Both the position numbers and the translations under genes were made by a program. DNA of 64,000 nt from positions 435,340 to 499,339 of the forward strand of contig JAAEPZ010000538.1 of the NCBI GenBank assembly GCA_024231955.1, read 5' to 3'. Positions 1,592 to 23,169 of this stretch are shown in pieces (the first letter of the stretch is position 1; each line of letters opens with the position of its first letter). Source of the stretch: a bacterium (GTDB lineage: Bacteria; Krumholzibacteriota; Krumholzibacteriia; JACNKJ01). Below the pieces are notes generated by a model that was not told where the DNA came from, did no database searches, and worked only from the letters and a program-made list of their open reading frames with translations.

Positions 1592-2049
1592 AACGTGCCT
1601 CCGGGCTGGGGGTTTTATTGAATGGATGAGGAACATACGGAGATAGGGTACTCCGGTTTCTATCCATCAGCTGGAGAGGGTGTTTTGGAGAGGGTGTGTC
1701 GATGGTCGAGGGCCTTGATGGGCATTCGACCTCCGCGGCGCCGGGCGATGCGCTCGCGGGAGTGCAGGGTCGCGGTGGGCGACCATGAGCGGATCATAGA
1801 GATTCTCGGAGCGGAGTGCAAAAGAAATCGGATGGGAGTCTGCGATTCGACAAGGGGCACCCTCATCCTGCTCCCGTCACGCCGCATTGGCAGGGCCCCC
1901 CGCTCGATCCCCTTGACCTCGTTGCGGCTCCCGATGTCGGCTATAGCGGGCTGCTTTCCCGAGATCCGAGCCCCCTTGAACAGCGATCCCGATTCTGTTA
2001 TTGTTGCTGCGTCAACATGGCAAGCCCTGACCAGAATCCGGGAGCACAA

Positions 2050-4293
2050 ATGTCATCTGATGCCGAATCCCCCAGGATCCGAAGATGGGAGACCCCGATC
2101 GTCTTCCATGACGAGCCGCTCCGTCATGCCGATGAAGCCTACTTCCGTTTCGACGAATACGCCACGACGCTGGCCCGTCTGATCGCGCGCAAGGACGCCC
2201 GCACGCCGATGGTGATTTGTATCGATGGTTCCTGGGGTTCCGGTAAAACCACACTGCTCCGTCGCCTCGAAAAGCAGCTTGGCACCGCGGCCGACTCCAA
2301 CGTTGCGGGCGATGTGCTGTTCCTTGATCCGGACGAACGGAATGGGAGCTTCTATCTCAACGAGTGGCGCCGTGTGCGCACCGTCCGGTTCGACGCCTGG
2401 AAATACTCCGGCGAGGATCAGTTGCTGGCGGCGCTGCTCCGGGTGATCCTGATGGAGATGAGTCGGACGGGGTCTTTTTGGGAGAAGGTCAAAGCCCGTC
2501 TCTCCGACGAGGGCAACAGGGGGATCGATCTCTTCGGCGGGATGCTCCACTGCGCATCGCAGGTCATCGGCAGGGTATTGCCCGATCTCGATCTCGAGAA
2601 GTTCGCGAAGGAGACGCCGCTGCAGGGGGCCACTGCCTTCTTCGATTACTTCCAAGTGGCCTTCAATCGTCTGATCGCCGGTTGGATCAAGGGGGAGATC
2701 GCCGATGAGGGGGGGATCGATGAGACCGCGGGGGTCATGGTGATCCTCGTGGATGATCTCGATCGATGCCTCCCCGCCAAGACGGTGCAGGTGCTTGAGG
2801 CGATCAAGCTCTTCCTGGATCAACCGGGCTGCGTCTTCGTCTTGGGCGCCGACACCGACATCGTGCAGCAGGCCGTCGAAAGCCACTACCGCAACACCGG
2901 CATCATGGAGAGGGCGGCCGGGGATTATCTCGACAAGATCATCCAGCTCCGCTTCCCGCTCCCGGCCATCGACGATCCTCAGATGCAGAGGTTCCTGGCC
3001 GACGAGGAGTTCGCCAGGATCGTCGGCGGGGGGCTGCTGGAGGACTGGGAGATTTTGATCGCCGGGGCGGACAACAATCCGCGCAAGGTCAAGGGGATCA
3101 TCAACGATCTCAACCTGCAGTGGGCCATGCTCGCCAACGCAGGGCAGGCCGACGGGGTGGAGCGCACCGATTTCCTCCGGCTGCAGATGCTGTTGCGGGC
3201 CGCGCCGACCGATTTCAGGAAGGATCTGCGTCGGTGGGGCGGCGAGAGACGGATGAACTACCTGAAGACGGTTTTCCAGGTCGTCAGGGGGAGGGCCTCG
3301 GATGCCGACCGGAAGAGCGTGGAGAAGCACCTGGAGGACTGGCGCTTTCGGAAGGTGTTCGAGACGCTCGCCACAGCTGGTTTCGAGGGCAGGATGGATG
3401 CGGCGCTCATCGAGACCTGCCTTTCGATGAGGAGCGTGGACAGCGCCGAGTCTCCGTCTGGCGATAAGCCGAAAACCCGACCCGGCGGTTGGATCAAGGG
3501 CCCGGATGGATCTGCTCCCCGGAGCGTCGAGACCGGAGCCGACAGCCGGTTTGTCGGCGACCTCGAGCTCCTCAGGGTGCCCGCCGGCGACTTCATCATG
3601 GGGAGCGAGACATCGAACGCAATGGCCGACAGCAATGAGCATCCTCAACATACGGTGACCTGCCTGGACAGAGACTACTGGTTGGCGCGCCATCCGGTGA
3701 CGAACCGGCAGTTCAACATCTACCTGGCGGCGGAGGGGCCGGAGGTTCTGAACCCCGTCTCCGACGACGACCTGCTGGATCACCCGGTTACAAACGTCTC
3801 CTGGCGGCAGGCCATGGCCTATTGCGAATGGCTGAACGGGATTGCGGCAAGCGCAGGTCTTGATTCCGGCAAAGAGCGGATCTCTCTGCCCAGCGAAGCG
3901 GAGTGGGAGAAGGCGGCGCGGGGCACACAGGCCAACGAGTGGCCCTGGGGCAACGAATTCGATGCCGGTAGAGCCAACTGTGCGGAGAATGGACCGAACC
4001 GGACAACACGGGTGGGAGCTTTCTCCCCGGACGGCGACGGGGTCTTCGGTCACGCTGATCTGAGCGGCAACGTTTGGGAGCTTACCCGGAGCTCCATGAG
4101 GGATTATCCCTATGACCCGGAGCCGGATCGTCCGGACAACCTGGACCTGGCCAAGGCCGACCAGTACGTTCTTCGCGGTGGCACGTTCTACGACATGGGT
4201 GAGAATGTGCGCTGCGCGCTCCGCGGCGGGAGCCTCGCTGGCAGTCGCACCAGGAACATAGGGTTTCGTGTTGTTTTGTCCCCGTTTCTCTGA
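2050..4293 (+). CDS. KAP family P-loop NTPase fused to a C-terminal FGE-sulfatase (SUMF1/formylglycine-generating-enzyme-like, FGS) domain
   Basis: Walker A MVICIDGSWGSGKTTLLRRL; KAP signature VMVILVDDLDRCLPAKTVQVLEAIKLFLD. A low-complexity linker is followed by FIMGSE...HPVTNVSWRQAMAYCEWLNG...LPSEAEWEKAARG...GNVWELT...YVLRGGTFYD...RCALRGG, typical of the FGE-sulfatase/DUF323 fold. Start chosen at ATG 2050 (GGGAG 8 nt upstream); the track ORF starts earlier at 1816 with no RBS. Confidence 0.75.
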   Translation: MSSDAESPRIRRWETPIVFHDEPLRHADEAYFRFDEYATTLARLIARKDARTPMVICIDGSWGSGKTTLLRRLEKQLGTAADSNVAGDVLFLDPDERNGSFYLNEWRRVRTVRFDAWKYSGEDQLLAALLRVILMEMSRTGSFWEKVKARLSDEGNRGIDLFGGMLHCASQVIGRVLPDLDLEKFAKETPLQGATAFFDYFQVAFNRLIAGWIKGEIADEGGIDETAGVMVILVDDLDRCLPAKTVQVLEAIKLFLDQPGCVFVLGADTDIVQQAVESHYRNTGIMERAAGDYLDKIIQLRFPLPAIDDPQMQRFLADEEFARIVGGGLLEDWEILIAGADNNPRKVKGIINDLNLQWAMLANAGQADGVERTDFLRLQMLLRAAPTDFRKDLRRWGGERRMNYLKTVFQVVRGRASDADRKSVEKHLEDWRFRKVFETLATAGFEGRMDAALIETCLSMRSVDSAESPSGDKPKTRPGGWIKGPDGSAPRSVETGADSRFVGDLELLRVPAGDFIMGSETSNAMADSNEHPQHTVTCLDRDYWLARHPVTNRQFNIYLAAEGPEVLNPVSDDDLLDHPVTNVSWRQAMAYCEWLNGIAASAGLDSGKERISLPSEAEWEKAARGTQANEWPWGNEFDAGRANCAENGPNRTTRVGAFSPDGDGVFGHADLSGNVWELTRSSMRDYPYDPEPDRPDNLDLAKADQYVLRGGTFYDMGENVRCALRGGSLAGSRTRNIGFRVVLSPFL

Positions 4294-9849: not shown

Positions 9850-10088
9850 ACCTACAGGATACCCCGCTTTTCCGTAATGGCAAAGGGGGAATGCCTCCGA
9901 TCATTTGCCGGCGCCGGTTGGCGGGATTTGCCGTCCCGATGGTTGCGGTCGGCCATTAGTTCGTCACATTCTCTCTCCGTTCGTAGATTTGTAGTGATAA
10001 TGCCGGAGCATTTATTTACAGTGTTCCTGCAATATTACGGTAAGGGACCCATCGTGTATCTGCCTGGATCGGCTGCAGGGGGACTGTT

Positions 10089-10619
10089 GTGAGCAGAGTT
10101 AATCAGGTGACTTGGGACTGGAGATCCGCAAGCGTCGGCGGGAGCCGGAGCGTTGATCGGATCGGCGTAATGCGGCGCGCCGCACTGATTCAGGTTGTGG
10201 TCATGGGATTGGTCGGCGTGGTGCTCCACCTCCTGTTGCACCATATCCTCTTCGCCCGGATCATCTGGGGGCTGGCTGCGGTGATCCTGATTCTGGGATT
10301 GACTGCGCCGCGGCTCTACCGCCCGATATATCGGTTCGGTCACTGGCTGGGGCAACTGGTCGGCAAGCTCATGCTCTATGTTCTCCTGGTGCCGTTCTAC
10401 TTTGTCCTTTTCGTTCCGGTCAGTCTCTACCTCAAATTGCGCGGGCGGGATCCGCTGCAGCGCACTCGCCGCGAACCAGGCCTGACCTACTGGATTCCCC
10501 GGCGACCCAAGGCGCGGGACGCCAACATCGCGGATCAGTTCCTCCGCGAAGACAAAGCCGCCCGCAATCTGAACCGCCCCGAGGGCGCATCCGGCTTCGG
10601 CGAGGGTGGTGCATCATGA
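10089..10619 (+). CDS. SxtJ-like small integral membrane protein (carbamoyltransferase-associated)
   Basis: Three to four predicted TM helices. The stop overlaps the carbamoyltransferase start (ATGA). The start is uncertain: GTG 10089 (GGGGGA 6 nt upstream) or ATG 10170. Family assignment is by context and size only. Confidence 0.5.
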   Translation: MSRVNQVTWDWRSASVGGSRSVDRIGVMRRAALIQVVVMGLVGVVLHLLLHHILFARIIWGLAAVILILGLTAPRLYRPIYRFGHWLGQLVGKLMLYVLLVPFYFVLFVPVSLYLKLRGRDPLQRTRREPGLTYWIPRRPKARDANIADQFLREDKAARNLNRPEGASGFGEGGAS

Positions 10620-12445
10620 ACATACTCGGGATCTCCGCCTACTATCACGACTCCGCCGCCTGTCTGGTGCAGGACGGCAGCATCACCGCCGCCGCTCAGG
10701 AGGAGCGGTTCACCCGCCGCAAACACGATTCCGGCTTCCCCCTGAATGCCGTGCGCTATTGCCTGGCCGCAGGGGATGTCGGTGAGGGCCAGGTGGATGT
10801 CGTCGTGTTCTACGACAAGCCGCTCACCAAATTCAGCCGCATCCTGAAAACCAGTTTCGCCGTCGCACCCCGCGGGCTCGATGCCTATCTGATGGCCATC
10901 CCCCTCTGGTTGCGTGAGAAACTCTGGATTCCGGCCGACATCGAACAGGCCCTCGCCACGGCGGGCGCCGGCAAGCCGGGCAAACTCTGCTTCACGGAGC
11001 ATCACGAATCGCACGCCGCCGGAGCCTTCTTCCCCGGACCCTTCGAGAGCGCTGCCGTACTCACGCTGGACGGTGTGGGTGAATGGGCCACCAGTTCGCT
11101 CAGTCGGGGCGAGGGCAACCGACTGACCATGCTGGAGGAGCTGCACTTTCCCCATTCACTCGGACTGCTCTATTCGGCCTTCACCTATCACACCGGCTTC
11201 CGGGTGAACTCGGGCGAGTACAAGCTGATGGGGCTGGCGCCCTATGGACGGCCCGTCTACGCGGAGCGGATCCGCGAGCACCTCGTCGATATCCGCTCCG
11301 ACGGCTCCTTCCGTCTCAATATGGATTACTTCGGTTTTGCCGATAGCCTGACCATGACCAACGACCGCTTCTCCACAATGTTCGATGGTCCGCCGCGCGC
11401 GCCCGAATCGGATCTGACCCAGCGCGAGATGGATCTTGCCCGCTCCGTGCAGGTGGTCGTCGAGGAGATCGTCCTGTTGCAGGCTCAATACGCCGCCAGG
11501 GTGACCGGCGAGAAACGGCTCTGTCTGGCGGGCGGCGTGGCGCTCAATTGCGTCGCCAATGGTCGACTGCTGCGCGAGAGCCCTTTCGAGGAGATCTGGA
11601 TCCAACCCGCGGCCGGTGACGCCGGCGGCGCTCTGGGTGCGGCGCTGTACCACTGGCACCAGGTGCAGGATCAGCCGCGTGCGCTTCAAAACGGCGGCGA
11701 TGCGATGTCCGGCGCCTACCTGGGTCCGGCCTACGACGACGATGAGATCACGGCCTGGCTGGATGCTCAAAAACTGCCCTACCGCCGTTTGCCGGATGGC
11801 GATCTGGAGTGCGAAGTGGCGCGACTGATCGATGAGCAGAATGTCGTCGGCATGTTCCAGGGACGGATGGAGTTCGGCCCGCGGGCACTGGGCAACCGCT
11901 CGATTTTGGGCGATGCCCGTTCGCCGAAAATGCAGTCGGTGCTCAATCTCAAGATCAAGTACCGGGAATCGTTCCGCCCCTTCGCCCCCTCCTGCCTGGA
12001 GGAGCGGATCGGCGATTTCTTCGATATCGATCGGCCGTCACCCTACATGCTGCTGGTGGCCCAGGTGCGGCCGGAGCGCTGCCTGCGGCCCGAAGCGGGC
12101 GAGCGGGGGATTCATGAGATGGTGAACCAGGTGCGGTCGGACGTGCCGGCGATTACCCACGTGGACCACTCGGCGCGGATCCAGTCGGTGTCGCGGGAGA
12201 CCAATCCCCGCTACCACCGCATCATCAAGGAGTTCGAGAAGCGCACCGGTTTCGGGATCATCATCAACACCTCCTTCAATGTGCGCGGGGAGCCGATAGT
12301 CTGCACGCCGGAGGATGCCTACCGCTGTTTCCGCCGCACGGAGATGGACTACCTGGTGCTGGGCAATCAGATACTGGACAAAAGCGATCAACCGCAGTGG
12401 GCGGAGCGGGGCGAGGCCTGGCAGGAGGAGTTTCCACTCGATTAG
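10616..12445 (+). CDS. Carbamoyltransferase (NodU/CmcH/TobZ/SxtI family)
   Basis: N-terminus MNILGISAYYHDSAACLVQDGSITAAAQEERFTRRKHDSGFP is the family hallmark. Length 609 aa. Confidence 0.85.
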   Translation: MNILGISAYYHDSAACLVQDGSITAAAQEERFTRRKHDSGFPLNAVRYCLAAGDVGEGQVDVVVFYDKPLTKFSRILKTSFAVAPRGLDAYLMAIPLWLREKLWIPADIEQALATAGAGKPGKLCFTEHHESHAAGAFFPGPFESAAVLTLDGVGEWATSSLSRGEGNRLTMLEELHFPHSLGLLYSAFTYHTGFRVNSGEYKLMGLAPYGRPVYAERIREHLVDIRSDGSFRLNMDYFGFADSLTMTNDRFSTMFDGPPRAPESDLTQREMDLARSVQVVVEEIVLLQAQYAARVTGEKRLCLAGGVALNCVANGRLLRESPFEEIWIQPAAGDAGGALGAALYHWHQVQDQPRALQNGGDAMSGAYLGPAYDDDEITAWLDAQKLPYRRLPDGDLECEVARLIDEQNVVGMFQGRMEFGPRALGNRSILGDARSPKMQSVLNLKIKYRESFRPFAPSCLEERIGDFFDIDRPSPYMLLVAQVRPERCLRPEAGERGIHEMVNQVRSDVPAITHVDHSARIQSVSRETNPRYHRIIKEFEKRTGFGIIINTSFNVRGEPIVCTPEDAYRCFRRTEMDYLVLGNQILDKSDQPQWAERGEAWQEEFPLD

Positions 12446-12519
12446 TTGGGGACGTGAGACCCGATTGGTGATAACGTCAACGAATATCGTAGGACCGGAA
12501 TGCGAAGGAGGAGATCGGA

Positions 12520-12684
12520 GTGAAGAAATTCCACCATCTGGGCAACCTGCTGCGTGAGGTCTGGCGCTTCGCCAGACAGAACAAGGCCTGGTGGATCGTG
12601 CCGACGATTCTGGCATTGCTGATCCTGTGTCTGCTGATCATCTCGGGTCAGACCATCGCTCCCTTCATCTATACGCTGTTCTAG
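12520..12684 (+). CDS. DUF5989/SxtK-like 54-aa membrane mini-protein; not in the ORF track because it is under 60 aa
   Basis: GTG 12520 with GGAGGAG RBS. Product VKKFHHLGNLLREVWRFARQNKAWWIVPTILALLILCLLIISGQTIAPFIYTLF: a basic N-terminus plus one TM helix, the usual partner of carbamoyltransferase/SxtJ. Confidence 0.55.
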   Translation: MKKFHHLGNLLREVWRFARQNKAWWIVPTILALLILCLLIISGQTIAPFIYTLF

Positions 12685-12729
12685 CAGATCTGCCTTGCGG
12701 TCGCCCGCGCCGCAGTAAAGGGGATACCG

Positions 12730-13602
12730 ATGCCGCTAGCCTGGGTACGACTGATGCCGCTGCTGCTGTTGACGCTGCTCGGTTTGTTGCTGGCCGCCGC
12801 GCGACTGAGTCGCGGTCGATTCGTTCTGCCCGGCTACCTGGGCTACCTGTGGGCATTCCTCGTGGTATTCGCCATCGCGGATCACATCTCCTTCACGCCC
12901 GCCGTCTGGCTCATGGCCCTGATCTCCTTCCGCGCCCTGCGCGAATACTTCTCGCTGGTCGATCTCCGTCTCGAAGATCGCTGGGGGATGATCGGCGCCT
13001 ACCTCTCGATCCCCTTCATGATCCTGCTCATCCAGATCGACTGGTACGGCTTCTTCATCGTCTCCATCCCCGTCTACGCGTTCATCGTCATCCCCTTCCT
13101 CGTCGCTCTGGGTGACCGTGAGGGGCGCGGCAGCCTGCTGTCGATAGGCGCCATCGACTTCGGCCTCTTCTTCTTCGTCTACTGCCTGGGGCACATCGCC
13201 TATCTGGCCCTCTTCTCGACCTGGTTGACGCTGCTGCTGCTCCTGGGCGTCGTAGTGTGCAATGTCGCCATCTCACTGACTGCTCGCCTGGGCCGCATCC
13301 CCGGATTTCTGCTGGCGACCGCGGCCACGGTCGGGCTGTCTCTGCTCCTGCGCCCCTGGACCACGGTGCCCTTCGGCCCGAGTATCTTCGTCGGCGTATT
13401 GATCCCCGTGCTGGTGCACATGGGCGAGTATACGGTCGGCGTGCTGGAGCGGGACCTGGGGATCAGCTCGGATGACCTCGAGCCGGGGCGCGGGCATGTT
13501 CTCGATTCGATGAAGTCATATCTCTTCGCGGCGCCGATCGTTTTCCACTATCTGCGTTGGGTCATGAAATTCGGCGAATTGCTCCTCGGTCATGGCAACT
13601 AG
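12730..13602 (+). CDS. Phosphatidate cytidylyltransferase (CdsA/CTP_transf_1) family membrane protein
   Basis: Polytopic membrane protein whose C-terminal motif GRGHVLDSMKSYLFAAPIVFHYL matches the CdsA GHGGxLDRxDS..F segment. Confidence 0.7.
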   Translation: MPLAWVRLMPLLLLTLLGLLLAAARLSRGRFVLPGYLGYLWAFLVVFAIADHISFTPAVWLMALISFRALREYFSLVDLRLEDRWGMIGAYLSIPFMILLIQIDWYGFFIVSIPVYAFIVIPFLVALGDREGRGSLLSIGAIDFGLFFFVYCLGHIAYLALFSTWLTLLLLLGVVVCNVAISLTARLGRIPGFLLATAATVGLSLLLRPWTTVPFGPSIFVGVLIPVLVHMGEYTVGVLERDLGISSDDLEPGRGHVLDSMKSYLFAAPIVFHYLRWVMKFGELLLGHGN

Positions 13603-15031
13603 ACTCCGCAATCTCCCCCGGCTGCTGCTCCACCTTCTGGTGCTGCGGCCGCTGCTCCATCTGATCTTCGGACTCAGTGTGCGGGGGCAGGCAAACCTGC
13701 CCGAGCGGGGGCCGTTCATCCTGGCGGCCAACCACAACAGCCATCTGGATATCCTCATGCTCTGCGCCGCCCTGCCGGTGCGGTTGCTGGGGAGCACCCA
13801 TGTGGTTGCGGCTCGCGACTACTTCAGCCGTTTCCCCCGCCTTTTCGCGGTGATCGACTACCTGTTGCGGCCGGTCTGGGTGGACAGGGGGACCGGGGGC
13901 AAGGCGGCGCTGGAGAAGATGGGCGAACTCCTGGATCGGGGCGAGAATATCATCATTTTCCCGGAGGGCACCCGGGGCGAGGCGGGCAAGCTCGCACGGT
14001 TCCATTCGGGTGTGGGGCGGCTGGTCGTCACCCATCCGGAGGCGCAACTGGTGCCGGCCTTCCTGCTCGGCAGCGAGCGGGCGCTGCCCCGCAACACCGC
14101 CCTGCCGCTGCTGCTCTGGCACCATGTCAATATCGGTCCGCCGCAGTCGATCAGCGGCGATGGCGGGGATATCACGCAGGCGCTGCGCGAGAGCATCATC
14201 GACCTGGGCAGCTCCCGGACGGCCGCGCGGCACAGGAGGCGACCGGAGCGACGGAGAGGGCTAACCATAGCCGTATTGGGCATCGACGGCTCCGGCAAGA
14301 GCACCCTGTCGCGTCGTCTGTGCGCCGAGCTTTCGGTCGGAGGGGGTACCTGCCTGATCGGCGACAGCCTTGATCTTTACTCCGACGGCGAACCCCGCGC
14401 GGCGCAGCCTCTAGTGAAGGAGAAGCTGCGGCGCTGGATGAGCGCTCAGGCCAAGGATGCGAAATCGCTGGCTCGCTACAAGATTCCCAAGCTGGCCGAA
14501 CTGCTGCTTCGCGACGCGCTCCTCGGCGAGGCGAAACGGTGGTATGGTCCCGATCTGATATTCATGGACGGCTCGCCGCTGCTCAACATGACGGCCTGGT
14601 CCGTCCTCTACCGTCCCCAGCAGTTGAGCGTTGATTTCTGCGCCCGCGCCATGTCGATACTGGCCGGGCGGGGGAGTGTTCGCGATCCGCTCTACGCCGA
14701 GTTTCCCGAACTCCGTCACCTGCGGCGACTGGGGCTCACCCGTCTCAAGCTGCCCGACCTGATACTGTTCCTGGATGTCGATCCTGCGGTAGCCATCGAG
14801 CGGATCATGAGCAGGGGAGAGCGTGTGCAGGTGCATGAAACGGAGGAGAAGCTGGGCCGATTGCGCGAAGCCTACCTGCTGACGGTGCGGGCGGCCCGCG
14901 AGAAACTCGACCTGCCCGCCCATGTCATCGAGGGCGGCAGGGAGCCGGATGTCATAACCGCCGAGGCGCGTGGGCTGGTGACGGCTCTGCGCGCGGAGAG
15001 AGTGACCGCAAGCGAGGAGGTATCCAGGTGA
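13592..15031 (+). CDS. Fusion protein: PlsC-like lysophospholipid acyltransferase (N-terminal) plus thymidylate-kinase-like P-loop kinase domain (C-terminal)
   Basis: HX4D acyltransferase motif (ANHNSHLD) and FPEGTRG. Then AVLGIDGSGKSTLSRRL (Tmk-like Walker A). The start overlaps the CdsA-like gene by 11 nt. Confidence 0.65.
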   Translation: MATRLRNLPRLLLHLLVLRPLLHLIFGLSVRGQANLPERGPFILAANHNSHLDILMLCAALPVRLLGSTHVVAARDYFSRFPRLFAVIDYLLRPVWVDRGTGGKAALEKMGELLDRGENIIIFPEGTRGEAGKLARFHSGVGRLVVTHPEAQLVPAFLLGSERALPRNTALPLLLWHHVNIGPPQSISGDGGDITQALRESIIDLGSSRTAARHRRRPERRRGLTIAVLGIDGSGKSTLSRRLCAELSVGGGTCLIGDSLDLYSDGEPRAAQPLVKEKLRRWMSAQAKDAKSLARYKIPKLAELLLRDALLGEAKRWYGPDLIFMDGSPLLNMTAWSVLYRPQQLSVDFCARAMSILAGRGSVRDPLYAEFPELRHLRRLGLTRLKLPDLILFLDVDPAVAIERIMSRGERVQVHETEEKLGRLREAYLLTVRAAREKLDLPAHVIEGGREPDVITAEARGLVTALRAERVTASEEVSR

Positions 15032-16026
15032 GTAAGCCGATTGAGGTGATCGCGACTACGATCTCGGGATCGATAAGCGACTGGAGCAAAGTGGAGAGGG
15101 TGGAGCCTCTCTTCGCGGAGCATGGTTTCACCGACCTGCGTCTGCATGTCGTCGATACGCACCTGGCCGCGCGGGGCAAGGCGCTGGAGCTGCTGGGAGA
15201 GGGCAGCCGCCTGCTGATCTCCGCCGGCGGATCGGGCACGTTCAACGCCGTGCTGGAGGGGTGTTGCGATTCGGGGCTCCCGCTGGGCGACCTGCAGCTG
15301 GGCTTCCTCCGCAAGGGGTCGGCCGACCTGCTCGGGAAGGTGCTGGGGATGCCCGATGAAATCGAGGCGGCTGTGGCCGTTTTCGCCGAGGCGATTCGGG
15401 GGGGGCACGTCATGTCCTGCGATGTCCTGCAGGCCGTGAACGATGGCTCTCGCGGGTTGCCGCGTCATTTCGTCGGCTACGGCGGCGGTGAGATCTTCGG
15501 GCGGATTCCCCACTTCACGGAGAACCGGTTCATGAAGTGGTACAAGGGTGTGCTCAGTCAGGCCTTCGGCGATCTCGGCCCTTTCACCACCGGCATGACG
15601 CTGGCGCTGTGCGAGAAGATCCTGCGCGGACCGTTCGGGCGACGCGAGTGGCGGATCGAGATCGATGGGGCCGAGGCGACGCAGGGGCGCTACCAGGCGC
15701 TGATCATCGTCAACGGTTACCTGGGTCCCGACATGGGCTATTCGGACGACCCTCTCGGCTCCGGACGTTTCCATCTCTTCGCGCTGCGTGATCAGGGGAT
15801 CGGCCGTCTGCTCAAGCAGGCGGGCAAGGCGCGCAGCGGCGCGATCATGGAGAATCCCGAGCGGTGGGGTATGGAGCACTATGTCGTTGGCGACACGCTT
15901 CACCTGACCACCGCAAGTGAGCGGCCGTTTCCGCTCAACGTGGACGGCTCCACCCTCATCTGCGACCACGCGGCGACGATCCGCCTGGTGGACAGCATCA
16001 ACCTGATCGCCGCACCCGGCAGCTGA
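15028..16026 (+). CDS. Lipid kinase of the DAGK_cat (YegS/LCB5/diacylglycerol kinase catalytic domain) family
   Basis: GTG start with GGAGG RBS; 4-nt overlap with the upstream gene. Motif LLISAGGSGTFNAVLEG matches the GGDGT signature of DAGK_cat. Confidence 0.7.
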   Translation: MSKPIEVIATTISGSISDWSKVERVEPLFAEHGFTDLRLHVVDTHLAARGKALELLGEGSRLLISAGGSGTFNAVLEGCCDSGLPLGDLQLGFLRKGSADLLGKVLGMPDEIEAAVAVFAEAIRGGHVMSCDVLQAVNDGSRGLPRHFVGYGGGEIFGRIPHFTENRFMKWYKGVLSQAFGDLGPFTTGMTLALCEKILRGPFGRREWRIEIDGAEATQGRYQALIIVNGYLGPDMGYSDDPLGSGRFHLFALRDQGIGRLLKQAGKARSGAIMENPERWGMEHYVVGDTLHLTTASERPFPLNVDGSTLICDHAATIRLVDSINLIAAPGS

Positions 16027-16086
16027 CTTCAGGGCATGCCCGGAGATCAATCTGCTTACATTTTCGCTGTACCACGGCCAGGCGTG

Positions 16087-16095
16087 TGATATAAT
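16087..16095 (+). promoter_or_regulatory. Extended -10 promoter element TGaTATAAT upstream of the 16130 gene
   Basis: TGATATAAT at 16087-16095, 35 nt upstream of the start codon. No good -35 seen. Confidence 0.35.
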
Positions 16096-16129
16096 TATGA
16101 CATATTCTCAATCAATCCAGGAGGCCTCC

Positions 16130-17152
16130 ATGAACGAGCAGCACCCTGACGGTATTCGCCCCGTATTCACCGCTCTTCTGATCCTGATCCTTGGACTGGT
16201 TCTGTCGCCGCAGTTCGCCGCCGCCGAATGGCGCGAGGGGGATTACAGGATCATGTCGCTCTCGGAGCTGTTGCCCCATCTAGGCGCGACCGCTTCCAGC
16301 GATCTGCCCGTCGATACGCCCGTGCTGCTGGCGCGGGGAACCGTTCCCGATGATATCGTCGCCATCCAGGGTGGGCTCGTGCGCAGCGGTCTGGCGCTGA
16401 AACCGACAGCGAGGGGGCGCGAGGTCGTCAGACCCGCTGTCGATGAGGCCGCCCGTGCGGCGGCGCGGCTGCTGGCCGTCACCCCCCTCCTGGTCAACAC
16501 GCGCGCCGAGGGTGTCATCGCCACAGGCGGCGCGGTGCTCTACGGACAGATTGTCGAGCCGCCCTACCTCGTCGAAAACGACGGCGAGGAGGTGCTGGTC
16601 AACGGTGTGCTGGTGTTCCCCTCTCCGGGCGTCCCTGTTGCGGTGCCCGCTGCGGATGCCGAGAGCATCCGGGAGTTCGAACTGGTGAAGACTGCGCGAA
16701 TGAGCTATCGCCGGGATCTGGAATCCCTGGGCGGCGAGGAGGCGCGCAGCCGCTTTCGCGAGACGGTGCTGACGCTTACCCATTTCGTGGAGGCCGAGTG
16801 GCGGAGTGAAAACTCCCTGCATGTCCTGCTCGCCAATGGCCAGCGCAAATCGATCATCATGTCCAACGTGGGGCGGGAGCCCGAGGAACCGACCTCCGCT
16901 CAGCTGAACGGGTATGGCGCGATGATGGCGCGCAATCTGCGCGAGATGCTCAGGCTGGATATGACCATTGTCGCCGGAGCCACCTACCTGATCTGCGAGG
17001 ACAACGCCTCGGGCGCGCACATGCGCGATCGTCTGCGGGAGGTTCTCGATTCCGTCGAGCCGGAGGCGCTGATTCTCGCGCGTCTGCAGGCTCGCCTCGG
17101 CAACAGGGCAGCCGCCGCCGATCTCTACTACTCGCACAGGGGGGGGAGGTAG
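16130..17152 (+). CDS. Hypothetical secreted/membrane-anchored protein
   Basis: ATG 16130 with AGGAGG RBS. N-terminal hydrophobic segment VFTALLILILGLVLSPQFAAA. No recognisable motifs. Its stop lies 4 nt before the next gene. Confidence 0.5.
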   Translation: MNEQHPDGIRPVFTALLILILGLVLSPQFAAAEWREGDYRIMSLSELLPHLGATASSDLPVDTPVLLARGTVPDDIVAIQGGLVRSGLALKPTARGREVVRPAVDEAARAAARLLAVTPLLVNTRAEGVIATGGAVLYGQIVEPPYLVENDGEEVLVNGVLVFPSPGVPVAVPAADAESIREFELVKTARMSYRRDLESLGGEEARSRFRETVLTLTHFVEAEWRSENSLHVLLANGQRKSIIMSNVGREPEEPTSAQLNGYGAMMARNLREMLRLDMTIVAGATYLICEDNASGAHMRDRLREVLDSVEPEALILARLQARLGNRAAAADLYYSHRGGR

Positions 17153-17155
17153 ATC

Positions 17156-20100
17156 ATGCGCAATCTAATCGGGATCGGCCTTTTGGCCCTGCTCATCTCC
17201 GTCCAGTTCGCACAAACCGCACTTGCCGGAGCCAATGAAACCCCCGGCAAGAATTATCAGCCGCACCGGTTCGGCAGCTTCCACGGGAACCTGTTCGAGT
17301 TCGGCTACCAGGATCTGCAGCTTTTCAAAATCCATGTCGTCGAGGATCAGCACTATCGCGTTGGAGCCTGTTACGCCGATTCCAAACGGGACAACTCCCC
17401 CGGCGGCGCCGGTCTGTTCAATTTTCAGGATTTCATCAGCGACAATAAGTACGATGTCATGTTGTTCACCTCCCATGGTACCGCGGATTGGGAAACGGTG
17501 ATCGAATTCTATGAATTCACCGCGCCCGGCTTTCTGATCCGCGCTCAGCAACTGGCGCTATATCACCTAATCTACGATCCCGATGAGGTCATTGCCGTGG
17601 ATGGGGAGGACTGGTTGGGGATCGCCGTCACGGAGAGCTTCTATGACAGGTTCATGAGGACCCCCGACGCCCTGGCCTGGTGGGCCTCCTGCTACTCGAT
17701 CGATATCGAACTGGTCGATCCGGGGCAGGCCCGGGCCTATGTCGGTTATGACGACTATGTCGTGAACATGAAGGTCAACTGCGATGAGCGGTATGTGCTG
17801 GGCCGGATGGACGGCCAGATGGGGCAGCAGTGGCGACCCCTGAAAAAGGCGATCGAGGGGGTCAACTCGCAATGTCCGCCCAACGACGCCTCTCTGGAGG
17901 CCCTGGGGAAGTTGAATACGACTCTCTCCCCCTCCGTGATCGAGTGGGAGCCTACCGGCGTCGTCTGCGTGGTCACGCCGGGACACGTCAAATTAGATAC
18001 GAGTCTCGACGTGAGCATCGATCCCCGTTCGGTGGTCAAGGCCTACGGGGACGCCGACCTCATCAACCATTCCTGGTCCGGCGACGACCGGATCGATTTC
18101 ACGGTCGTCCCGACCAGGCCCTATCCGAATATCGAGTACAGGGTCAAGGAGGCGAAGGCGGTAAGCAAGGCCGATCATGCCCGTCTGGACGGCAACACCT
18201 GGCCGGGGCCGCAGAACGCCTATGGTCCCAACCGCGACGACTTCGTCTGGAACACCACCTGCCCCGGCGGTTCCACACCGCCGTCGACGCCATCGACGCC
18301 GACGCCCGTATCCCCGCCGTCGACACCGACCACTCCGGGCGGCACCACCCGCGTGCCCACACCTGTCACCAACGGCGGGACCACCGATCAGGTGATCACC
18401 ATCACGCTTTACGATGTCCTGACCTGGTGCAGCAATCCCGACACCACGTTCCTCTCCCGCGGCGGCGGCAGCGACATCCTGTTCTGGGATTTCGAGGTGC
18501 CGACGGATGCGCTGCCGGGTACGATCAACACCTTCACCATCACAATCGAGGGGGAGGGTGAACCCTTCGTCGCCCACGGCGAGATCGTCGTGCCGAGTCT
18601 GGTGGCGGCCGCATTGCTGGACAACCCGGCGGTTCTCACCGGCCAGATCCAGGAGAAGAGATTGATTGTGGAGAACAACCGTGAGGTGCCGGTCGATGTC
18701 GATAACCTGACGCTGCTGAGCAGTGAACCGATCATGATCACCCCCGACCTGCCCGGCTTCACGCTGGAGGCGGGGGGGGAGATCGAACTGCTCCTGATGG
18801 TTGACGTCCCCCCGGGGCCCGACAATATGGTCTTCCCAGTTCAGGTGACTGCCGACCTGACCGGTGAAACCTGCGAGATCGGCGGCTTCGATCTCGTCAG
18901 CGGATTGACGATCGTGCTGCCCGGCCAGGACCTTGAGGTGCCCACGGGCTCTCCCGGTACTCCCCGGCCGCTGCCGATCGAGAACACCAGCGGAGTGCCG
19001 TTCGATGTGCAGGTCCTGGCCGTGGATTCGCACGGCTGGCCCGTCTCCGTGCCGCCGGCCCTGCCGCTGGGGCCATTGGAGACGGCCGAGATACCTCTCG
19101 GTTTGAGTGTTCCGCCCGATCCCCTCTTGATCGGTCAGACCGGCAATATCACTCTGGAGCTGGAGGATCCGATCCTGGCCTTGTCATCCACCCATACGAT
19201 CCACTATACGATCGGGCCGGCTCTGGAGATTGTCCTGGGGAGCAGACAGATGGAGAATGTCTATACGGGCTGCGCCGGTTGCCCATTTATGTGGCACCTG
19301 GACCTTCAAAACTCCTCAATCGAGATGATCGAAGGTGAAATCGAGTTGCTCATCGACAGCGGTGGAGCGTTGCCCCTTCTGGCACCCATACCCATCATGA
19401 TGGGACCCGGCGAAATATACCCATTCGATTTCGCACTGCCCGAATTGCCGCCGGGTTTCGCGCCGGGGCTCTACCCGGTGACGATTGAGGCCACGACATC
19501 AAGCGGACTCGGCGATTTCTCGCTGAATACGGAGATGAAGATCACCACACCGGTAACGGCTACCATGATCCAGCGAGCTGTCGCGGGCTATCCGGGCGAG
19601 GAGGCCGTCGTCTCCGCCGTGATCGGGAATCAACGTTCCGACATGCCCATGAACGGCGAGTACGAGATAACGGACTCGATGGGTTGGCTGCCGGAACCGG
19701 TTCTAGGCATATACGATTTCGAGCCGGAGGGCTTGGAAACCCTGGATGTCTTTTTGAGTCCACCGCCCAGGGGGGCGCTGGATTCGACCGAGGTCACGTT
19801 GCGTATCACCATGCTGGATGATTTCGGCGGTCTGCTGGAGGATATGGCGTCAACCTGGCTGAAGGTTTTCGAGGAGCCTGTCGGTATTGAGGATGGTCCG
19901 CCGCCGGCCCACACGGATCTGATGGGCAACTATCCCAATCCGTTCAATCCGCGTACATCCGTCGAGTTCAACCTGGAGCGTGCCGGGGATATTCGGCTGA
20001 GTGTCCACGATGTGGCCGGACGGGTGGTCTCGGTGCTCCACGAGGGCTACGCCGGGGCCGGACGGCACAGTCATATCTGGGAGGGTATGACGGACGACGG

Positions 20101-20182
20101 GGTGGCATCCAGCGGCGTCTACTTCATCAGGTTGGAGACGGCCGACGGAATCTGGTCGAGCAAGGCGGTGCTGATCAGATAG
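17156..20182 (+). CDS. Large secreted protein (1008 aa) with a C-terminal type IX secretion (T9SS, Por_Secre_tail type A) sorting domain and a Pro/Thr/Ser-rich linker
   Basis: GGGAGG RBS; signal peptide LLALLISVQFAQTALA. Last ~80 aa: NYPNPFNPRTSVEFNLERAGDIRLSVHDVAGRVVSVLHEGYAGAGRHSHIWEGMTDDGVASSGVYFIRLETADG match the T9SS CTD consensus (NYPNPFNP...V.L.V.D..GR.V..L....AG.H...W.G.D..G..V.SGVYF.RL). PT-rich linker TPPSTPSTPTPVSPPSTPTTPGG. Confidence 0.8.
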   Translation: MRNLIGIGLLALLISVQFAQTALAGANETPGKNYQPHRFGSFHGNLFEFGYQDLQLFKIHVVEDQHYRVGACYADSKRDNSPGGAGLFNFQDFISDNKYDVMLFTSHGTADWETVIEFYEFTAPGFLIRAQQLALYHLIYDPDEVIAVDGEDWLGIAVTESFYDRFMRTPDALAWWASCYSIDIELVDPGQARAYVGYDDYVVNMKVNCDERYVLGRMDGQMGQQWRPLKKAIEGVNSQCPPNDASLEALGKLNTTLSPSVIEWEPTGVVCVVTPGHVKLDTSLDVSIDPRSVVKAYGDADLINHSWSGDDRIDFTVVPTRPYPNIEYRVKEAKAVSKADHARLDGNTWPGPQNAYGPNRDDFVWNTTCPGGSTPPSTPSTPTPVSPPSTPTTPGGTTRVPTPVTNGGTTDQVITITLYDVLTWCSNPDTTFLSRGGGSDILFWDFEVPTDALPGTINTFTITIEGEGEPFVAHGEIVVPSLVAAALLDNPAVLTGQIQEKRLIVENNREVPVDVDNLTLLSSEPIMITPDLPGFTLEAGGEIELLLMVDVPPGPDNMVFPVQVTADLTGETCEIGGFDLVSGLTIVLPGQDLEVPTGSPGTPRPLPIENTSGVPFDVQVLAVDSHGWPVSVPPALPLGPLETAEIPLGLSVPPDPLLIGQTGNITLELEDPILALSSTHTIHYTIGPALEIVLGSRQMENVYTGCAGCPFMWHLDLQNSSIEMIEGEIELLIDSGGALPLLAPIPIMMGPGEIYPFDFALPELPPGFAPGLYPVTIEATTSSGLGDFSLNTEMKITTPVTATMIQRAVAGYPGEEAVVSAVIGNQRSDMPMNGEYEITDSMGWLPEPVLGIYDFEPEGLETLDVFLSPPPRGALDSTEVTLRITMLDDFGGLLEDMASTWLKVFEEPVGIEDGPPPAHTDLMGNYPNPFNPRTSVEFNLERAGDIRLSVHDVAGRVVSVLHEGYAGAGRHSHIWEGMTDDGVASSGVYFIRLETADGIWSSKAVLIR

Positions 20183-20199: not shown

Positions 20200-23040
20200 T
20201 CAATCCGCAGCCGGCTCATCGGTTGAACTCGCCAGTCTGGCTCGCCATGCGGCGGCTTCGGCATCGTAACCGCCGTCCGGCTCCGCCGCATGCCGGGTGT
20301 CGTAGAGGTCGATGATGGCCCGTACGATGCCGATCGTGTGGCGATGGCTCTCTCCGACCAAGGCCACCACTCTATCATACGCCTCAAGCAACGCGGCAGA
20401 GGCCTCGTCGAACCGTTCGAGCTTCGACAGCGTTACTCCGTAGCTGGCCAGAAACGCCGCCGCATCCTGGTGTCTCTCCGGTTGAGTCTCTCTCGCCCAG
20501 TTGACGGCCTGGGCCCCACAAATTGCGGCCTCCTCGAATTGCCCCAGATCGCGCAGCAGTCGGCCCATGTTGTGGATCGAGGTGATGGTGCTGGGGTGGT
20601 CGTCTCCCAGCATGCGGCGGTTACCCTCCAGCGATTCGCGGAAGTAGGGTTCGGCCTCTTCCAGATTCCCCAATTTCTTGAGCAGAATACCCACATAGCT
20701 GATCGCAACCAGCGTGTTGGGATGGTCATCGCCAAGCGTTCGCCGCGACCCGGCCAGGACCTCCCGGAACATCTTGAGAGCCTCCTCGTATTTTCCCATC
20801 CCTATGAGCAGACTGGCCATGTTGCTGAACGAGACCAGGGTTTCGGGATGATCATCGCCGTTGATTCGGCGACGAATCTCCAGGACTTCACGAAAGTAGG
20901 ATTCAGCCTCGTCGAGCCGCCCTAGCGCATGATACAGGTCACCCAGATTGTTGATCACTACCAGCGTATTCGGGTGATTGTCGCCAAGCACCCGTCGGTT
21001 GCCGACCAGGGCCTCGTTGAAGTAGATCAGAGCCTCATCGTACTGCTCCATCGCTTTGAGCAGGCTGCCCATGTTGAGGACGGAGGTCAATGTCTCCACA
21101 TCATCATTGCCCAGAACACGTCGGTAACCCTCCAGCGCCTCCCGGTAGTAGACCTGTGCCTCCTCCAATCTTCCCATCTTGCTGACGATAAGACCCATGT
21201 TGTTGATCGCCGCTAACGTCTCGGGATGATCGTTGCCCAGAGTGCGGCGACGTCCCTCCAAACCCTCCTCGTAGTAGGTATGGGCCTCATCGAAACGCCC
21301 CATCGATTCGAGCAGATAACCCATGCGGTCAATCGATTTCAACGTATCCTGATGATCGTCGCCCAGCTCTGCGCGCCGGGTACTCAGGGCGGACTCCTGC
21401 AATGGCTTCGCCGGTTGGAAGCGTCCGATCCGACAGTACGTCTCCGCGACGGTTTGCTGAAGCGCCGCGCGGACCAGCGGCTGATCGATGAAATCCGAAC
21501 CTATCGCCCTCACCGCTCGGTCGAGCACCTGTTTGTCCATCAGATTCAACGCAACATCCGTTGCGTTCGCCTTGAGGAGCATCCGCTCAAACCCGGCTGC
21601 GGCGGATTCGCTCTCCTCGGGCGACAGCCCCTCCGCCTCCAGCGCTTCACGTATGCGGGAGCGGAGATCGCCGTACAGAGCCTGACCCATGGCCTCAACA
21701 TCGATATCGCTCAGCATCGACTGCTGGAACTCGGTGAGAATCTCCAGCTCATCAGCCCGCTCCTCGGCCAATGTCCGTTGCACCTCTTCGGCAATCTGCG
21801 CCGCCTCCGCCTCCCGGCGAGCACGGCTCTGGTTCTGGTACATGATCGACAGGGCGAATGTCGATCCGGTCAGGATGAGAATGAAGGCGGCGATCACACC
21901 GACGGCGAGACGATAACGCCGCAGCGATTTCCGGAGAACATACCAGGGGCTGTTCCGCTTGGCGTCGAGAGGTTCCCCGGCCAGATAGCGACCGACATCC
22001 CGGGAGAGGGCGTGCGCCGATTGGTAGCGACGCTCCTTCTCCTTCGCCAGGGTTTTGAGAACGATCGTCTCGATCTCGTTGTCGATCCGGGGATTGACCG
22101 ACGCTGGCCTCCTCGGTTCGACCTTGGCGATATTGCCGAGAACCTCGGCCACGTGGCCGACAACCCCGTAGGGGAAATCCCCCGTAAGCATTTCGTAGAG
22201 GATCATGCCCAGCGAATATACATCCGCGCGAGTATCGATCAATCGAGGGTCGCCGCAAGTGTGCTCCGGCGACGCATAGGCGAGTGTACCCATGAACTCG
22301 CCCAGGACCGTTACCGGCTGACCATCCTGTATGTCGGGCCCCGCCGCTTTCGCCAGGCCGAAATCCAGAACGTGCGGCTCGCCCTCCGCATTGACGCGAA
22401 TGTTGCCGGGTTTGAGATCACGGTGAATCACACCGCGCTGGTGGGCGGAGTTGACCGCGGAGCAGATCTTCCGGAACAGCCTCAACTTCGCCTTGGTGTC
22501 CAGCGTCGTGTTCTTCAGATACTCATCAAGGGAATGGCCATGGATGTACTCCATCGCGAAGTAATAGCGCCCCTGCGCCAGGCCGCTGTCGTAAACCGTA
22601 ACGATGTTGGGATGCTGAATACTGGCGATGAGGTCAATCTCGCGTTCGAAACGGTGTTGCTGTTTCGCCGAGGCGAATGGACCGTGCAGCAGTACTTTGA
22701 GGGCCACCGTCCGCTTCGTCGCCAGCTGCACGGCCTTGTACACGACACCCTGACCACCGCGATGAATCTCATGAAGGATATCGTAGCCTTCGATGTGATT
22801 TGCCGGTGCGGGATCTGCGCCCGAACCTGAATCACATGTCATGTCCGGATCGAAATCCACGGTCTTTCCGCAATCCTGCCGATTGCTCAGCCCGAATTGC
22901 GTAGTGAGTTTACGATTGGTGATGGTCTTGCGGCAACTCAGGCAGGAAGCAAGATGTGCCTCGAAGCGCTCCTTGTCCTCCGTCGACAGCTCCCCGGCAA
23001 TGAGCGCTTCAACCTCGTCAAACTTCAGACAGATATCCAT
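20200..23040 (-). CDS. Serine/threonine protein kinase with an N-terminal zinc-finger-like segment, a TM helix and C-terminal TPR (TPR_10/12-type) repeats
   Basis: Hanks kinase motifs: GGQGVVYKA...ALK (VAIK-like), HRDLKPGN, DFGLAKA, ASPEH. N-terminus CLSCRK. TM segment LAVGVIAAFILILTGSTFALSI. Then at least 8 repeats of the type LGDDHPNTLVAISYVGILLKKLGNLEEAEPYFRESLE. Confidence 0.85.
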   Translation of the reverse strand: MDICLKFDEVEALIAGELSTEDKERFEAHLASCLSCRKTITNRKLTTQFGLSNRQDCGKTVDFDPDMTCDSGSGADPAPANHIEGYDILHEIHRGGQGVVYKAVQLATKRTVALKVLLHGPFASAKQQHRFEREIDLIASIQHPNIVTVYDSGLAQGRYYFAMEYIHGHSLDEYLKNTTLDTKAKLRLFRKICSAVNSAHQRGVIHRDLKPGNIRVNAEGEPHVLDFGLAKAAGPDIQDGQPVTVLGEFMGTLAYASPEHTCGDPRLIDTRADVYSLGMILYEMLTGDFPYGVVGHVAEVLGNIAKVEPRRPASVNPRIDNEIETIVLKTLAKEKERRYQSAHALSRDVGRYLAGEPLDAKRNSPWYVLRKSLRRYRLAVGVIAAFILILTGSTFALSIMYQNQSRARREAEAAQIAEEVQRTLAEERADELEILTEFQQSMLSDIDVEAMGQALYGDLRSRIREALEAEGLSPEESESAAAGFERMLLKANATDVALNLMDKQVLDRAVRAIGSDFIDQPLVRAALQQTVAETYCRIGRFQPAKPLQESALSTRRAELGDDHQDTLKSIDRMGYLLESMGRFDEAHTYYEEGLEGRRRTLGNDHPETLAAINNMGLIVSKMGRLEEAQVYYREALEGYRRVLGNDDVETLTSVLNMGSLLKAMEQYDEALIYFNEALVGNRRVLGDNHPNTLVVINNLGDLYHALGRLDEAESYFREVLEIRRRINGDDHPETLVSFSNMASLLIGMGKYEEALKMFREVLAGSRRTLGDDHPNTLVAISYVGILLKKLGNLEEAEPYFRESLEGNRRMLGDDHPSTITSIHNMGRLLRDLGQFEEAAICGAQAVNWARETQPERHQDAAAFLASYGVTLSKLERFDEASAALLEAYDRVVALVGESHRHTIGIVRAIIDLYDTRHAAEPDGGYDAEAAAWRARLASSTDEPAAD

Positions 23041-23169
23041 GCGCCGCTCCCCGCCGCGAATGTGATCGGCAATAAAACCATCCAGGTGCGATATAGAGCT
23101 TACAGATATGCAACAGCGGGAGTCAAATCAAACATATATGTAACCGGGCAAACATGGACAATAAGCAGC

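Follow-up and report, generated by a model that had tools for sequence, protein, structure and literature searches.

A carbamoyltransferase trio and a lipid-enzyme cassette side by side in a Krumholzibacteriota genome, probably two modules rather than one pathway

A stretch of 64,000 nucleotides (nt) from a Krumholzibacteriota contig (GenBank assembly GCA_024231955.1, contig JAAEPZ010000538.1, positions 435,340 to 499,339; hereafter the window) carries six genes in a row, all on one strand, at positions 10089-16026. An earlier note on this DNA had read them as one operon with the enzymology to build a phospho- or cytidine diphosphate (CDP)-activated lipid and then O-carbamoylate it. Our analysis points to a different picture. 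The locus probably consists of two three-gene modules, each conserved on its own, that lie next to each other and are probably co-transcribed without forming one dedicated pathway. Module A is a trio of an SxtJ-like protein, a carbamoyltransferase (CT), and a DUF5989 mini-protein; module B is a cassette of a CdsA-like protein, an acyltransferase fused to a P-loop kinase, and a DAGK-like protein. We hold with good confidence that these are two autonomous units, because neither the loci that carry the trio nor the loci that carry the cassette show the combination. The adjacency of the six genes is most likely a lineage-specific juxtaposition. The features of the locus are as follows:

10089-10619, plus strand: SxtJ-like small membrane protein (module A, gene 1; 176 aa, GTG start, PF19588)
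10616-12445, plus strand: predicted NodU/CmcH/TobZ-type O-carbamoyltransferase, CT (module A, gene 2; 609 aa, Carbam_trans_N and Carbam_trans_C)
12520-12684, plus strand: DUF5989/SxtK-like membrane mini-protein (module A, gene 3; 54 aa, GTG start, PF19451)
12730-13602, plus strand: CdsA-like polytopic membrane protein (module B, gene 1; 290 aa, CTP_transf_1)
13592-15031, plus strand: fusion of a PlsC/Aas-type acyltransferase (residues ~1-210) with a Tmk/dNK-fold P-loop kinase (residues ~220-479) (module B, gene 2; 479 aa)
15028-16026, plus strand: atypical DAGK_cat-family protein (module B, gene 3; 332 aa, DAGK_cat)
9850-10088, no strand assigned: divergent intergenic region between the agmatinase gene (minus strand) and the SxtJ-like gene, candidate promoter region of the six-gene run

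Much of the earlier description was borne out. The six same-strand open reading frames (ORFs), their coordinates, and the overlaps between them were all confirmed in the sequence, and every family assignment held when judged against the gathering score of the Pfam family, which all six gene products exceed (SxtJ narrowly, and CTP_transf_1 over the C-terminal part of the protein only). The remark that the carbamoyltransferase trio is widespread and uncharacterised was also correct. What found no support was the single pathway, and the evidence on this point comes from the distribution of the two modules.

Distribution and linkage of the two modules

To define the distribution of module B, we collected loci by a search with the fusion protein (80 from GTDB species representatives, 80 from metagenomes, and two contigs of close relatives) and then searched these loci with the window proteins by tblastn at a limit of E<=1e-3. 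The PlsC-kinase fusion is encoded in 117 of the loci collected, and 107 of the 117 hold the complete cassette of CdsA-like, fusion, and DAGK-like genes, throughout in one order and on one strand, with median hit-to-hit gaps of 36 and 33 nt. The CdsA-like gene sits upstream of the fusion gene in these 107 loci, and the DAGK-like gene always follows the fusion gene in complete loci. In eight of the ten incomplete loci, a contig end truncates the locus or lies within ~700 nt. The other two, L035 and L036, are the most divergent variants and miss one part although their flanks are long (in L035, the CdsA-like gene). The 11-nt and 4-nt overlaps seen within module B in the window recur in relatives. 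The hosts belong to at least ten phyla overall, and include Gemmatimonadota, Acidobacteriota/Aminicenantes, Planctomycetota, a Prochloraceae cyanobacterium, Kiritimatiellales/Pontiella, Oceanospirillales, Bacteroidota, Zixibacteria, Verrucomicrobiota, KSB1, and Krumholzibacteriota.

The trio does not travel with this cassette. No match to SxtJ, CT, or DUF5989 was found near the cassette in any of the 117 loci, among which the complete ones offer at least 2.5 kb of flank upstream in 56 of 107 cases and downstream in 57 of 107. The closest cassette relatives (62-76% identity; L081, L082, L086-L095) have flanks that are unrelated to one another and hold no trio. When ORFs within 10 kb of the cassette were clustered across 39 loci, no further recurrent partner appeared; beyond the three cassette genes, only their antisense shadow ORFs recur.

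The view from the other side is the same. The order SxtJ-like, CT, DUF5989 is intact in all five loci with a 70-78% identical CT, while the flanks of these five vary (ETF genes, Chalcone_3, an ABC transporter, a GDSL lipase, LPG_synthase_TM), and the lipid cassette is absent from all five. Non-toxigenic lineages, Krumholzibacteria and Verrucomicrobia among them, have homologous trios, and for both modules Krumholzibacteriota are among the closest relatives. A gene-neighbourhood search had been set beforehand as the test that could refute a carbamoyl-lipid pathway. Run from both sides, it found the two modules adjacent only in this genome, and this result left the proposal that the locus builds and then O-carbamoylates an activated lipid unsupported.

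Within this genome the two modules are nevertheless closely packed. The stop of the SxtJ-like gene and the start of the CT gene share an ATGA overlap (10616-10619), spacers of 74 nt and 45 nt separate the CT gene from the DUF5989 gene and the DUF5989 gene from the CdsA-like gene, and the overlaps are 11 nt between the CdsA-like and fusion genes and 4 nt (GTGA) between the fusion and DAGK-like genes. A simple scan placed no terminator-like site between the six genes (three sites against 3.8 by chance); the two terminator-like sites inside the run, from the same chance-level scan, both fall within the CdsA-like coding sequence. Simple scans likewise gave nothing above chance, terminator or promoter, that would divide the two modules. 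Upstream, the run is bounded by the divergent agmatinase gene, and region 9850-10088 is the likely promoter region of the six genes; the single promoter-like site that a simple scan found there is on the minus strand only. GC content and GC at third codon positions (GC3) are even over the six genes and their flanks, and this uniformity gives no compositional sign of recent transfer for either module. Co-transcription of the six genes is plausible from their arrangement.

The lipid-enzyme module

The first protein of module B had been labelled a CdsA-family cytidylyltransferase. The family part of this label stands: CTP_transf_1 matches at 3e-9 (37.5 bits against a cutoff of 24), although only over the C-terminal 85 residues and profile positions 174-262, and the family profile matches the Thermotoga maritima enzyme (TmCdsA, 4Q2E/4Q2G) at 6.8e-10 with 4q2g over TmCdsA residues 108-279, a likeness of family and fold. 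The cytidylyltransferase part probably does not stand. In TmCdsA, alanine mutants of D144, K167, D219, K226, D246, and D249 each lose more than 98% of activity (PMC4083444). The corresponding positions in the window protein are N for D144, a deletion for K167, E for D219, E for K226, D for D246, and K for D249, which leaves D246 as the sole essential residue retained; the deletion of K167 takes its SPxKxxEG loop along. The same degenerate pattern is found in 11 other cassette-family CdsA-like proteins and extends through the cassette family as a whole, and the window protein has no NCBIfam CdsA match. Because five of the six essential TmCdsA residues are lost, a CDP-activated lipid is an unlikely product of the cassette, and a CDP-activated intermediate in module B is, as far as residue conservation can tell, equally unlikely. 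We infer that this CdsA paralogue, having lost cytidylyltransferase residues, is probably a membrane-embedded lipid-binding or anchoring subunit.

Loss of the catalytic set is not general among related CdsA genes. Distant triads of a CDP-alcohol phosphatidyltransferase-like gene (CDP-OH_P_transf), CdsA, and PlsC, in that order (L038-L080), keep the canonical catalytic set, and the CdsA of an Omnitrophota sister locus, L166, keeps it except for N at D249. The triad was seen in ~29-42 loci (e.g., L046:9032-10618 and L075:703-2924), with hosts among Alphaproteobacteria (Kaistia, Kiloniella, Dongia), Planctomycetota, Caldilineaceae, and others. Its CDP-alcohol phosphatidyltransferase-like protein has 211 aa and a best NCBIfam match to archaetidylinositol-phosphate synthase (2.3e-18), and its CdsA has a conserved N-terminal half in common with the window CdsA-like protein. 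Presumably, this triad resembles ynbA-ynbB of E. coli.

In the fusion protein, both halves are recognizable and neither reaches the score of a characterised enzyme. Pfam matches are to Acyltransferase (1.7e-21) and Thymidylate_kin (4.9e-9), and three motifs, NHNSHLD (HX4D), FPEGTRG, and the Walker A GIDGSGKS, are invariant in 16 fusion homologues. An AlphaFold2 (AF2) model of the fusion has a predicted local distance difference test (pLDDT) score of 83.9. The acyltransferase half matches PlsC 5kym both by profile (4.9e-15) and by Foldseek on the AF2 model (2e-6); from motifs and modelled fold, it is predicted to be of the PlsC type. Its likeness to Aas and PlsC lies in the intact HX4D and FPEGTRG motifs and this fold. 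It differs from Aas in that the ligase and acyl carrier protein (ACP) parts are missing and a P-loop kinase is fused instead, and from both enzymes in scoring far under every equivalog cutoff. For example, the best NCBIfam match is the Aas-type acyl-[ACP]--phospholipid O-acyltransferase at 2.7e-20, with 71.8 bits against 1221, and TIGR00530 gives 55.8 against a cutoff of 103.

The kinase half is predicted to have a P-loop and the Tmk/dNK fold, with top Foldseek matches to 8puu, 4tmk, and 3hjn (TM-target 0.65-0.77). It shares the fold of thymidylate and deoxynucleoside kinases, but the deoxythymidine monophosphate (dTMP) kinase model TIGR00041 scores 32.4 bits against a cutoff of 83, and it is not an equivalog match. 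In an hhalign comparison with E. coli Tmk, the P-loop domain aligned at 82% probability, with the middle, nucleotide-monophosphate-binding region aligning too unreliably to conclude that the Tmk DRY-type motif has been lost.

The third protein, described at first as a DAGK_cat lipid kinase, belongs to that family (DAGK_cat 1.2e-8, 35 bits against a cutoff of 23.6) but is not a typical member. Its profile matches are to DgkB (2qv7, 8.3e-6) and human acylglycerol kinase (AGK; 7cgp, 7.6e-4), a likeness shared with the DgkB/YegS/AGK group. The GGDGT signature of DgkB, YegS, AGK, and sphingosine kinase is, however, altered: the motif SAGGSGTF is invariant in 17 sequences, so that GGDGT has become GGSGT and its Asp is lost. 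The sister clade described below has GG[S/A/G]GT, whereas at these columns DgkB and AGK read GGDGT. The C-terminal DG is followed by Ser in the window protein and never by Glu in the family, and the family has invariant motifs of its own (ATTxSGS, FLRKGSADL, N.DGS). By these residues, the protein is predicted to be an atypical family member. None of the three module B proteins reaches an NCBIfam equivalog threshold, and literature searches on CdsA-like/acyltransferase/lipid-kinase clusters and on PlsC/CdsA/DAGK_cat operons found no description and no characterised member.

The wider family of the kinase domain offers some context for module B. Of 1.84 billion representatives, 309 belong to it at E<=1e-3, and the domain is found in three settings: following PlsC (~475 aa), apparently without a partner, and preceding a DAGK-like domain (~580-640 aa). 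Because the kinase is fused to either partner, the acyltransferase, P-loop kinase, and DAGK-like protein would be expected to act together (Rosetta-stone evidence). The kinase-DAGK fusion marks a large sister clade, with members among Omnitrophota, Wallbacteria, Nitrolancea, and others, where it adjoins a protein with AMP-binding, ACP, and acyltransferase parts, the full Aas-like architecture. The sister loci (L166:1-9646; L167:4366-8755; L168:7001-13171) look like larger lipid gene clusters. One of them, L166, also has a CDP-OH_P_transf gene and a canonical CdsA, along with an alpha/beta hydrolase, a hexapeptide transferase, and a methyltransferase, while L168 adds a 4HBT thioesterase and HAD phosphatases. 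The divergent variant L035 (L035:7925-15013, Omnitrophota metagenome-assembled genome JAHJCU010000003.1) encodes an AMP-binding, PP-binding, and acyltransferase protein of 894 aa, a fusion of Tmk-like and DAGK_cat parts of 587 aa, and a HypF of 865 aa.

From the Aas-like context and an enzyme resembling diacylglycerol or monoacylglycerol kinases, a role in lipid turnover or salvage follows as the most natural proposal. In such a scheme, the PlsC/Aas-type acyltransferase would re-acylate a lyso-lipid, a lipid alcohol or lipid phosphate would be phosphorylated at the expense of ATP, and neutral lipid by-products would be re-phosphorylated. The net role would be turnover or salvage of membrane glycerolipids, as the domain content and the Aas-like sister clade suggest. 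We put forward tentatively, at somewhat less than even chances, that the substrates of module B are glycerolipids, which it would salvage or remodel.

The carbamoyltransferase trio

The central protein of module A is a confident family member. Carbam_trans_N (2.9e-92) and Carbam_trans_C (1.3e-72) both match at full length, the translation carries an HHESH motif, and homologues in several phyla are 68-78% identical. On the conservation of these domains and this motif, CT is predicted to be an O-carbamoyltransferase of the NodU/CmcH/TobZ superfamily, with which it has in common both full-length Pfam domains and, in the Kae1-like domain, the HHxSH motif. It differs from these enzymes in always standing with two small membrane proteins and in being unusually conserved across phyla. 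It is also not NodU itself, as the equivalog model NF041651 scores 152 bits against a cutoff of 1000.

Both small partners appear to be genuine. The SxtJ-like protein passes PF19588 narrowly (25.6 bits against a cutoff of 24.4) and is 46-53% identical to the gene product preceding CT in three related loci (L083, L084, L085); its GTG start at 10089 is backed by an N-terminal RV..TWNWR motif kept in three homologues. The 54-aa ORF, which gene calling had missed and the earlier note had proposed, is real: it matches DUF5989 (PF19451) at 5.7e-16, is 63-67% identical to ORFs 3' of homologous carbamoyltransferases, shares with these counterparts an invariant C-terminal SGQ..APFIYTLF, and has a GGAGGAG ribosome-binding site upstream of its GTG start.

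All three families of an SxtI/J/K-type trio are therefore found adjacent here, above their gathering scores. In the cyanobacterial saxitoxin clusters, sxtI, sxtJ, and sxtK measure 1839, 405, and 165 bp (PMC2679770), and SxtJ and SxtK are unknown proteins proposed to join SxtI in carbamoyl transfer (PMC2679770; PMC2684587). The window trio is alike in the adjacency of the same three families, in a CT of ~610 aa, and in a 54-aa SxtK/DUF5989 protein. It differs in order (I-J-K in the sxt clusters, J-I-K here) and in its SxtJ, which has 134 aa in the saxitoxin cluster and 176 aa here, just above the Pfam cutoff. The locus is not a saxitoxin cluster: no other gene of the published sxt lists is adjacent to the trio (PMC2679770; PMC2684587). 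Literature searches on DUF5989, or on SxtJ and SxtK outside saxitoxin, found no description of module A.

Functionally, a soluble CT dependent on ATP and carbamoyl phosphate would work with the two small membrane proteins, and its acceptor may be an envelope-associated or exported molecule. Some neighbours of related trios touch on the same subject. A GDSL/SGNH lipase gene lies near the trio in two of the five loci (the Verrucomicrobia contig of P0216, and L170:10032-10802), and sxtL of saxitoxin clusters is a GDSL lipase too. In the Verrucomicrobia locus, the trio is flanked by an Acyl_transf_3 gene and an LPG_synthase_TM gene. These neighbours are hints of envelope chemistry, too few to build on.

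Alternatives, surroundings, and significance

Several observations weigh against two unconnected modules or against a salvage role for module B. Only 45 nt separate the modules here, with no terminator-like signal between them, and co-expression is probable. Both modules are membrane-associated. The salvage role proposed for module B rests on domain homology, and in two of the three module B proteins the catalytic signature of the family is altered. In L035, moreover, a full-length HypF (YrdC/Kae1-like carbamoyltransferase superfamily) directly follows the cassette variant. Even so, we give little credence to a local functional link between the two modules in this organism.

For module B itself, the alternative that survives best is that two successive ATP-dependent phosphorylations yield an activated or signalling lipid pyrophosphate, such as diacylglycerol pyrophosphate. 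The DAGK-like protein would take an alcohol to a phosphate, the domain with the nucleoside monophosphate (NMP) kinase fold would take the phosphate to a pyrophosphate, and the lipid would be kept in the membrane by the CdsA paralogue. NMP kinases phosphorylate a phosphomonoester, and this chemistry suits the second step. In the large sister clade, both kinases lie on a single polypeptide. The CdsA paralogue has retained its fold and its conserved N-terminal half while losing the catalytic set for CTP-dependent chemistry, and the window's clade has no counterpart of the CDP-alcohol transferase that accompanies the distant CdsA/PlsC triads and one locus of the sister clade. However, the proposal is purely inferential, a nucleotide or some other small molecule would be an equally good candidate substrate for the kinase, and a literature search found nothing on phosphatidate kinases of bacteria. 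We regard this explanation as unlikely.

Somewhat less likely still is the single six-gene pathway, in which a lipid or lipid-linked headgroup would be acylated, phosphorylated, CDP-activated, and then O-carbamoylated with the help of SxtJ and SxtK. The shared strand, the small or negative spacers without a terminator-like site, and the presence of membrane proteins in both modules are what one would expect of such a pathway, and the HypF-type carbamoyltransferase 3' of the distant variant L035 might seem to add an independent carbamoyl link. That adjacency is not recurrent. No other locus examined has HypF, and four further loci of the L035 clade are without any carbamoyltransferase, and we rejected the link and treat it as coincidence. 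The combination of cassette and trio is found in 0 of 117 cassette loci and 0 of 5 trio loci, the closest relatives on both sides included, and a CdsA-like protein without five of six essential residues undermines the CDP activation that the pathway would need.

It is very improbable that module B is a housekeeping phospholipid set, with CdsA making CDP-diacylglycerol, PlsC making phosphatidate, DagK recycling diacylglycerol, and a Tmk fused by accident. The Pfam families equal those of the canonical enzymes and the PlsC motifs are intact, but the three proteins fall short of all equivalog thresholds (32 bits against 83 for the dTMP-kinase model), the essential CdsA residues are lost, GGDGT has become GGSGT family-wide, and the kinase family is small and patchy, unlike essential housekeeping genes. 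We find it just as hard to credit that module B makes a non-canonical lipid (a lipid pyrophosphate or an ATP-activated phosphatidyl donor) that the co-transcribed trio here carbamoylates. Two juxtaposed modules, each conserved on its own, remain the reading we prefer.

The surroundings of the six-gene run are varied. Its neighbours in the window are the agmatinase, a beta-lactamase-TPR protein, and hypothetical proteins. The spacer 3' of the DAGK-like gene (16027-16135; 70-104 nt) holds GATATAAT, a TATAAT-like, -10-like hexamer. For the ORF downstream of it, a start at the ATG at ~16130, which has an AGGAGG ribosome-binding site, is likelier than one at 16097, and the 351-aa product of this ORF has no Pfam or NCBIfam match. 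Further on, 17156-20182 encodes a 1008-aa protein with no Pfam match at 1e-5, whose C-terminus resembles a sorting tail of the type IX secretion system (T9SS)/FlgD_ig type. In L082, a Krumholzibacteriota relative, the cassette likewise has Por_Secre_tail and FlgD_ig proteins at its flanks, and such sorting-tail proteins are consistent with an FCB-group or Krumholzibacteriota-like organism. The minus strand at 20200-24816 carries one signalling pair: a 946-aa protein in which zf-HC2 and a Ser/Thr protein kinase are joined to a long TPR array, and an adjacent FHA and HATPase_c histidine-kinase-like protein of 548 aa. At 1816-4293, an 825-aa ORF has an unusual domain make-up, with a KAP-family P-loop NTPase (1.8e-43) and, at the C-terminus, an FGE-sulfatase domain (formylglycine-generating-enzyme-like; 1.4e-44).

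Had it been borne out, a six-gene carbamoyl-lipid pathway would have added a new class to the known lipid modifications; the evidence does not support it. What emerges instead is module B as a broadly distributed variant of known lipid-enzyme operons. It provides a natural example of a CdsA scaffold without cytidylyltransferase residues, and a target for studying lipid recycling or remodelling in uncultured Gemmatimonadota, Acidobacteriota, Planctomycetota, Krumholzibacteriota, and others.

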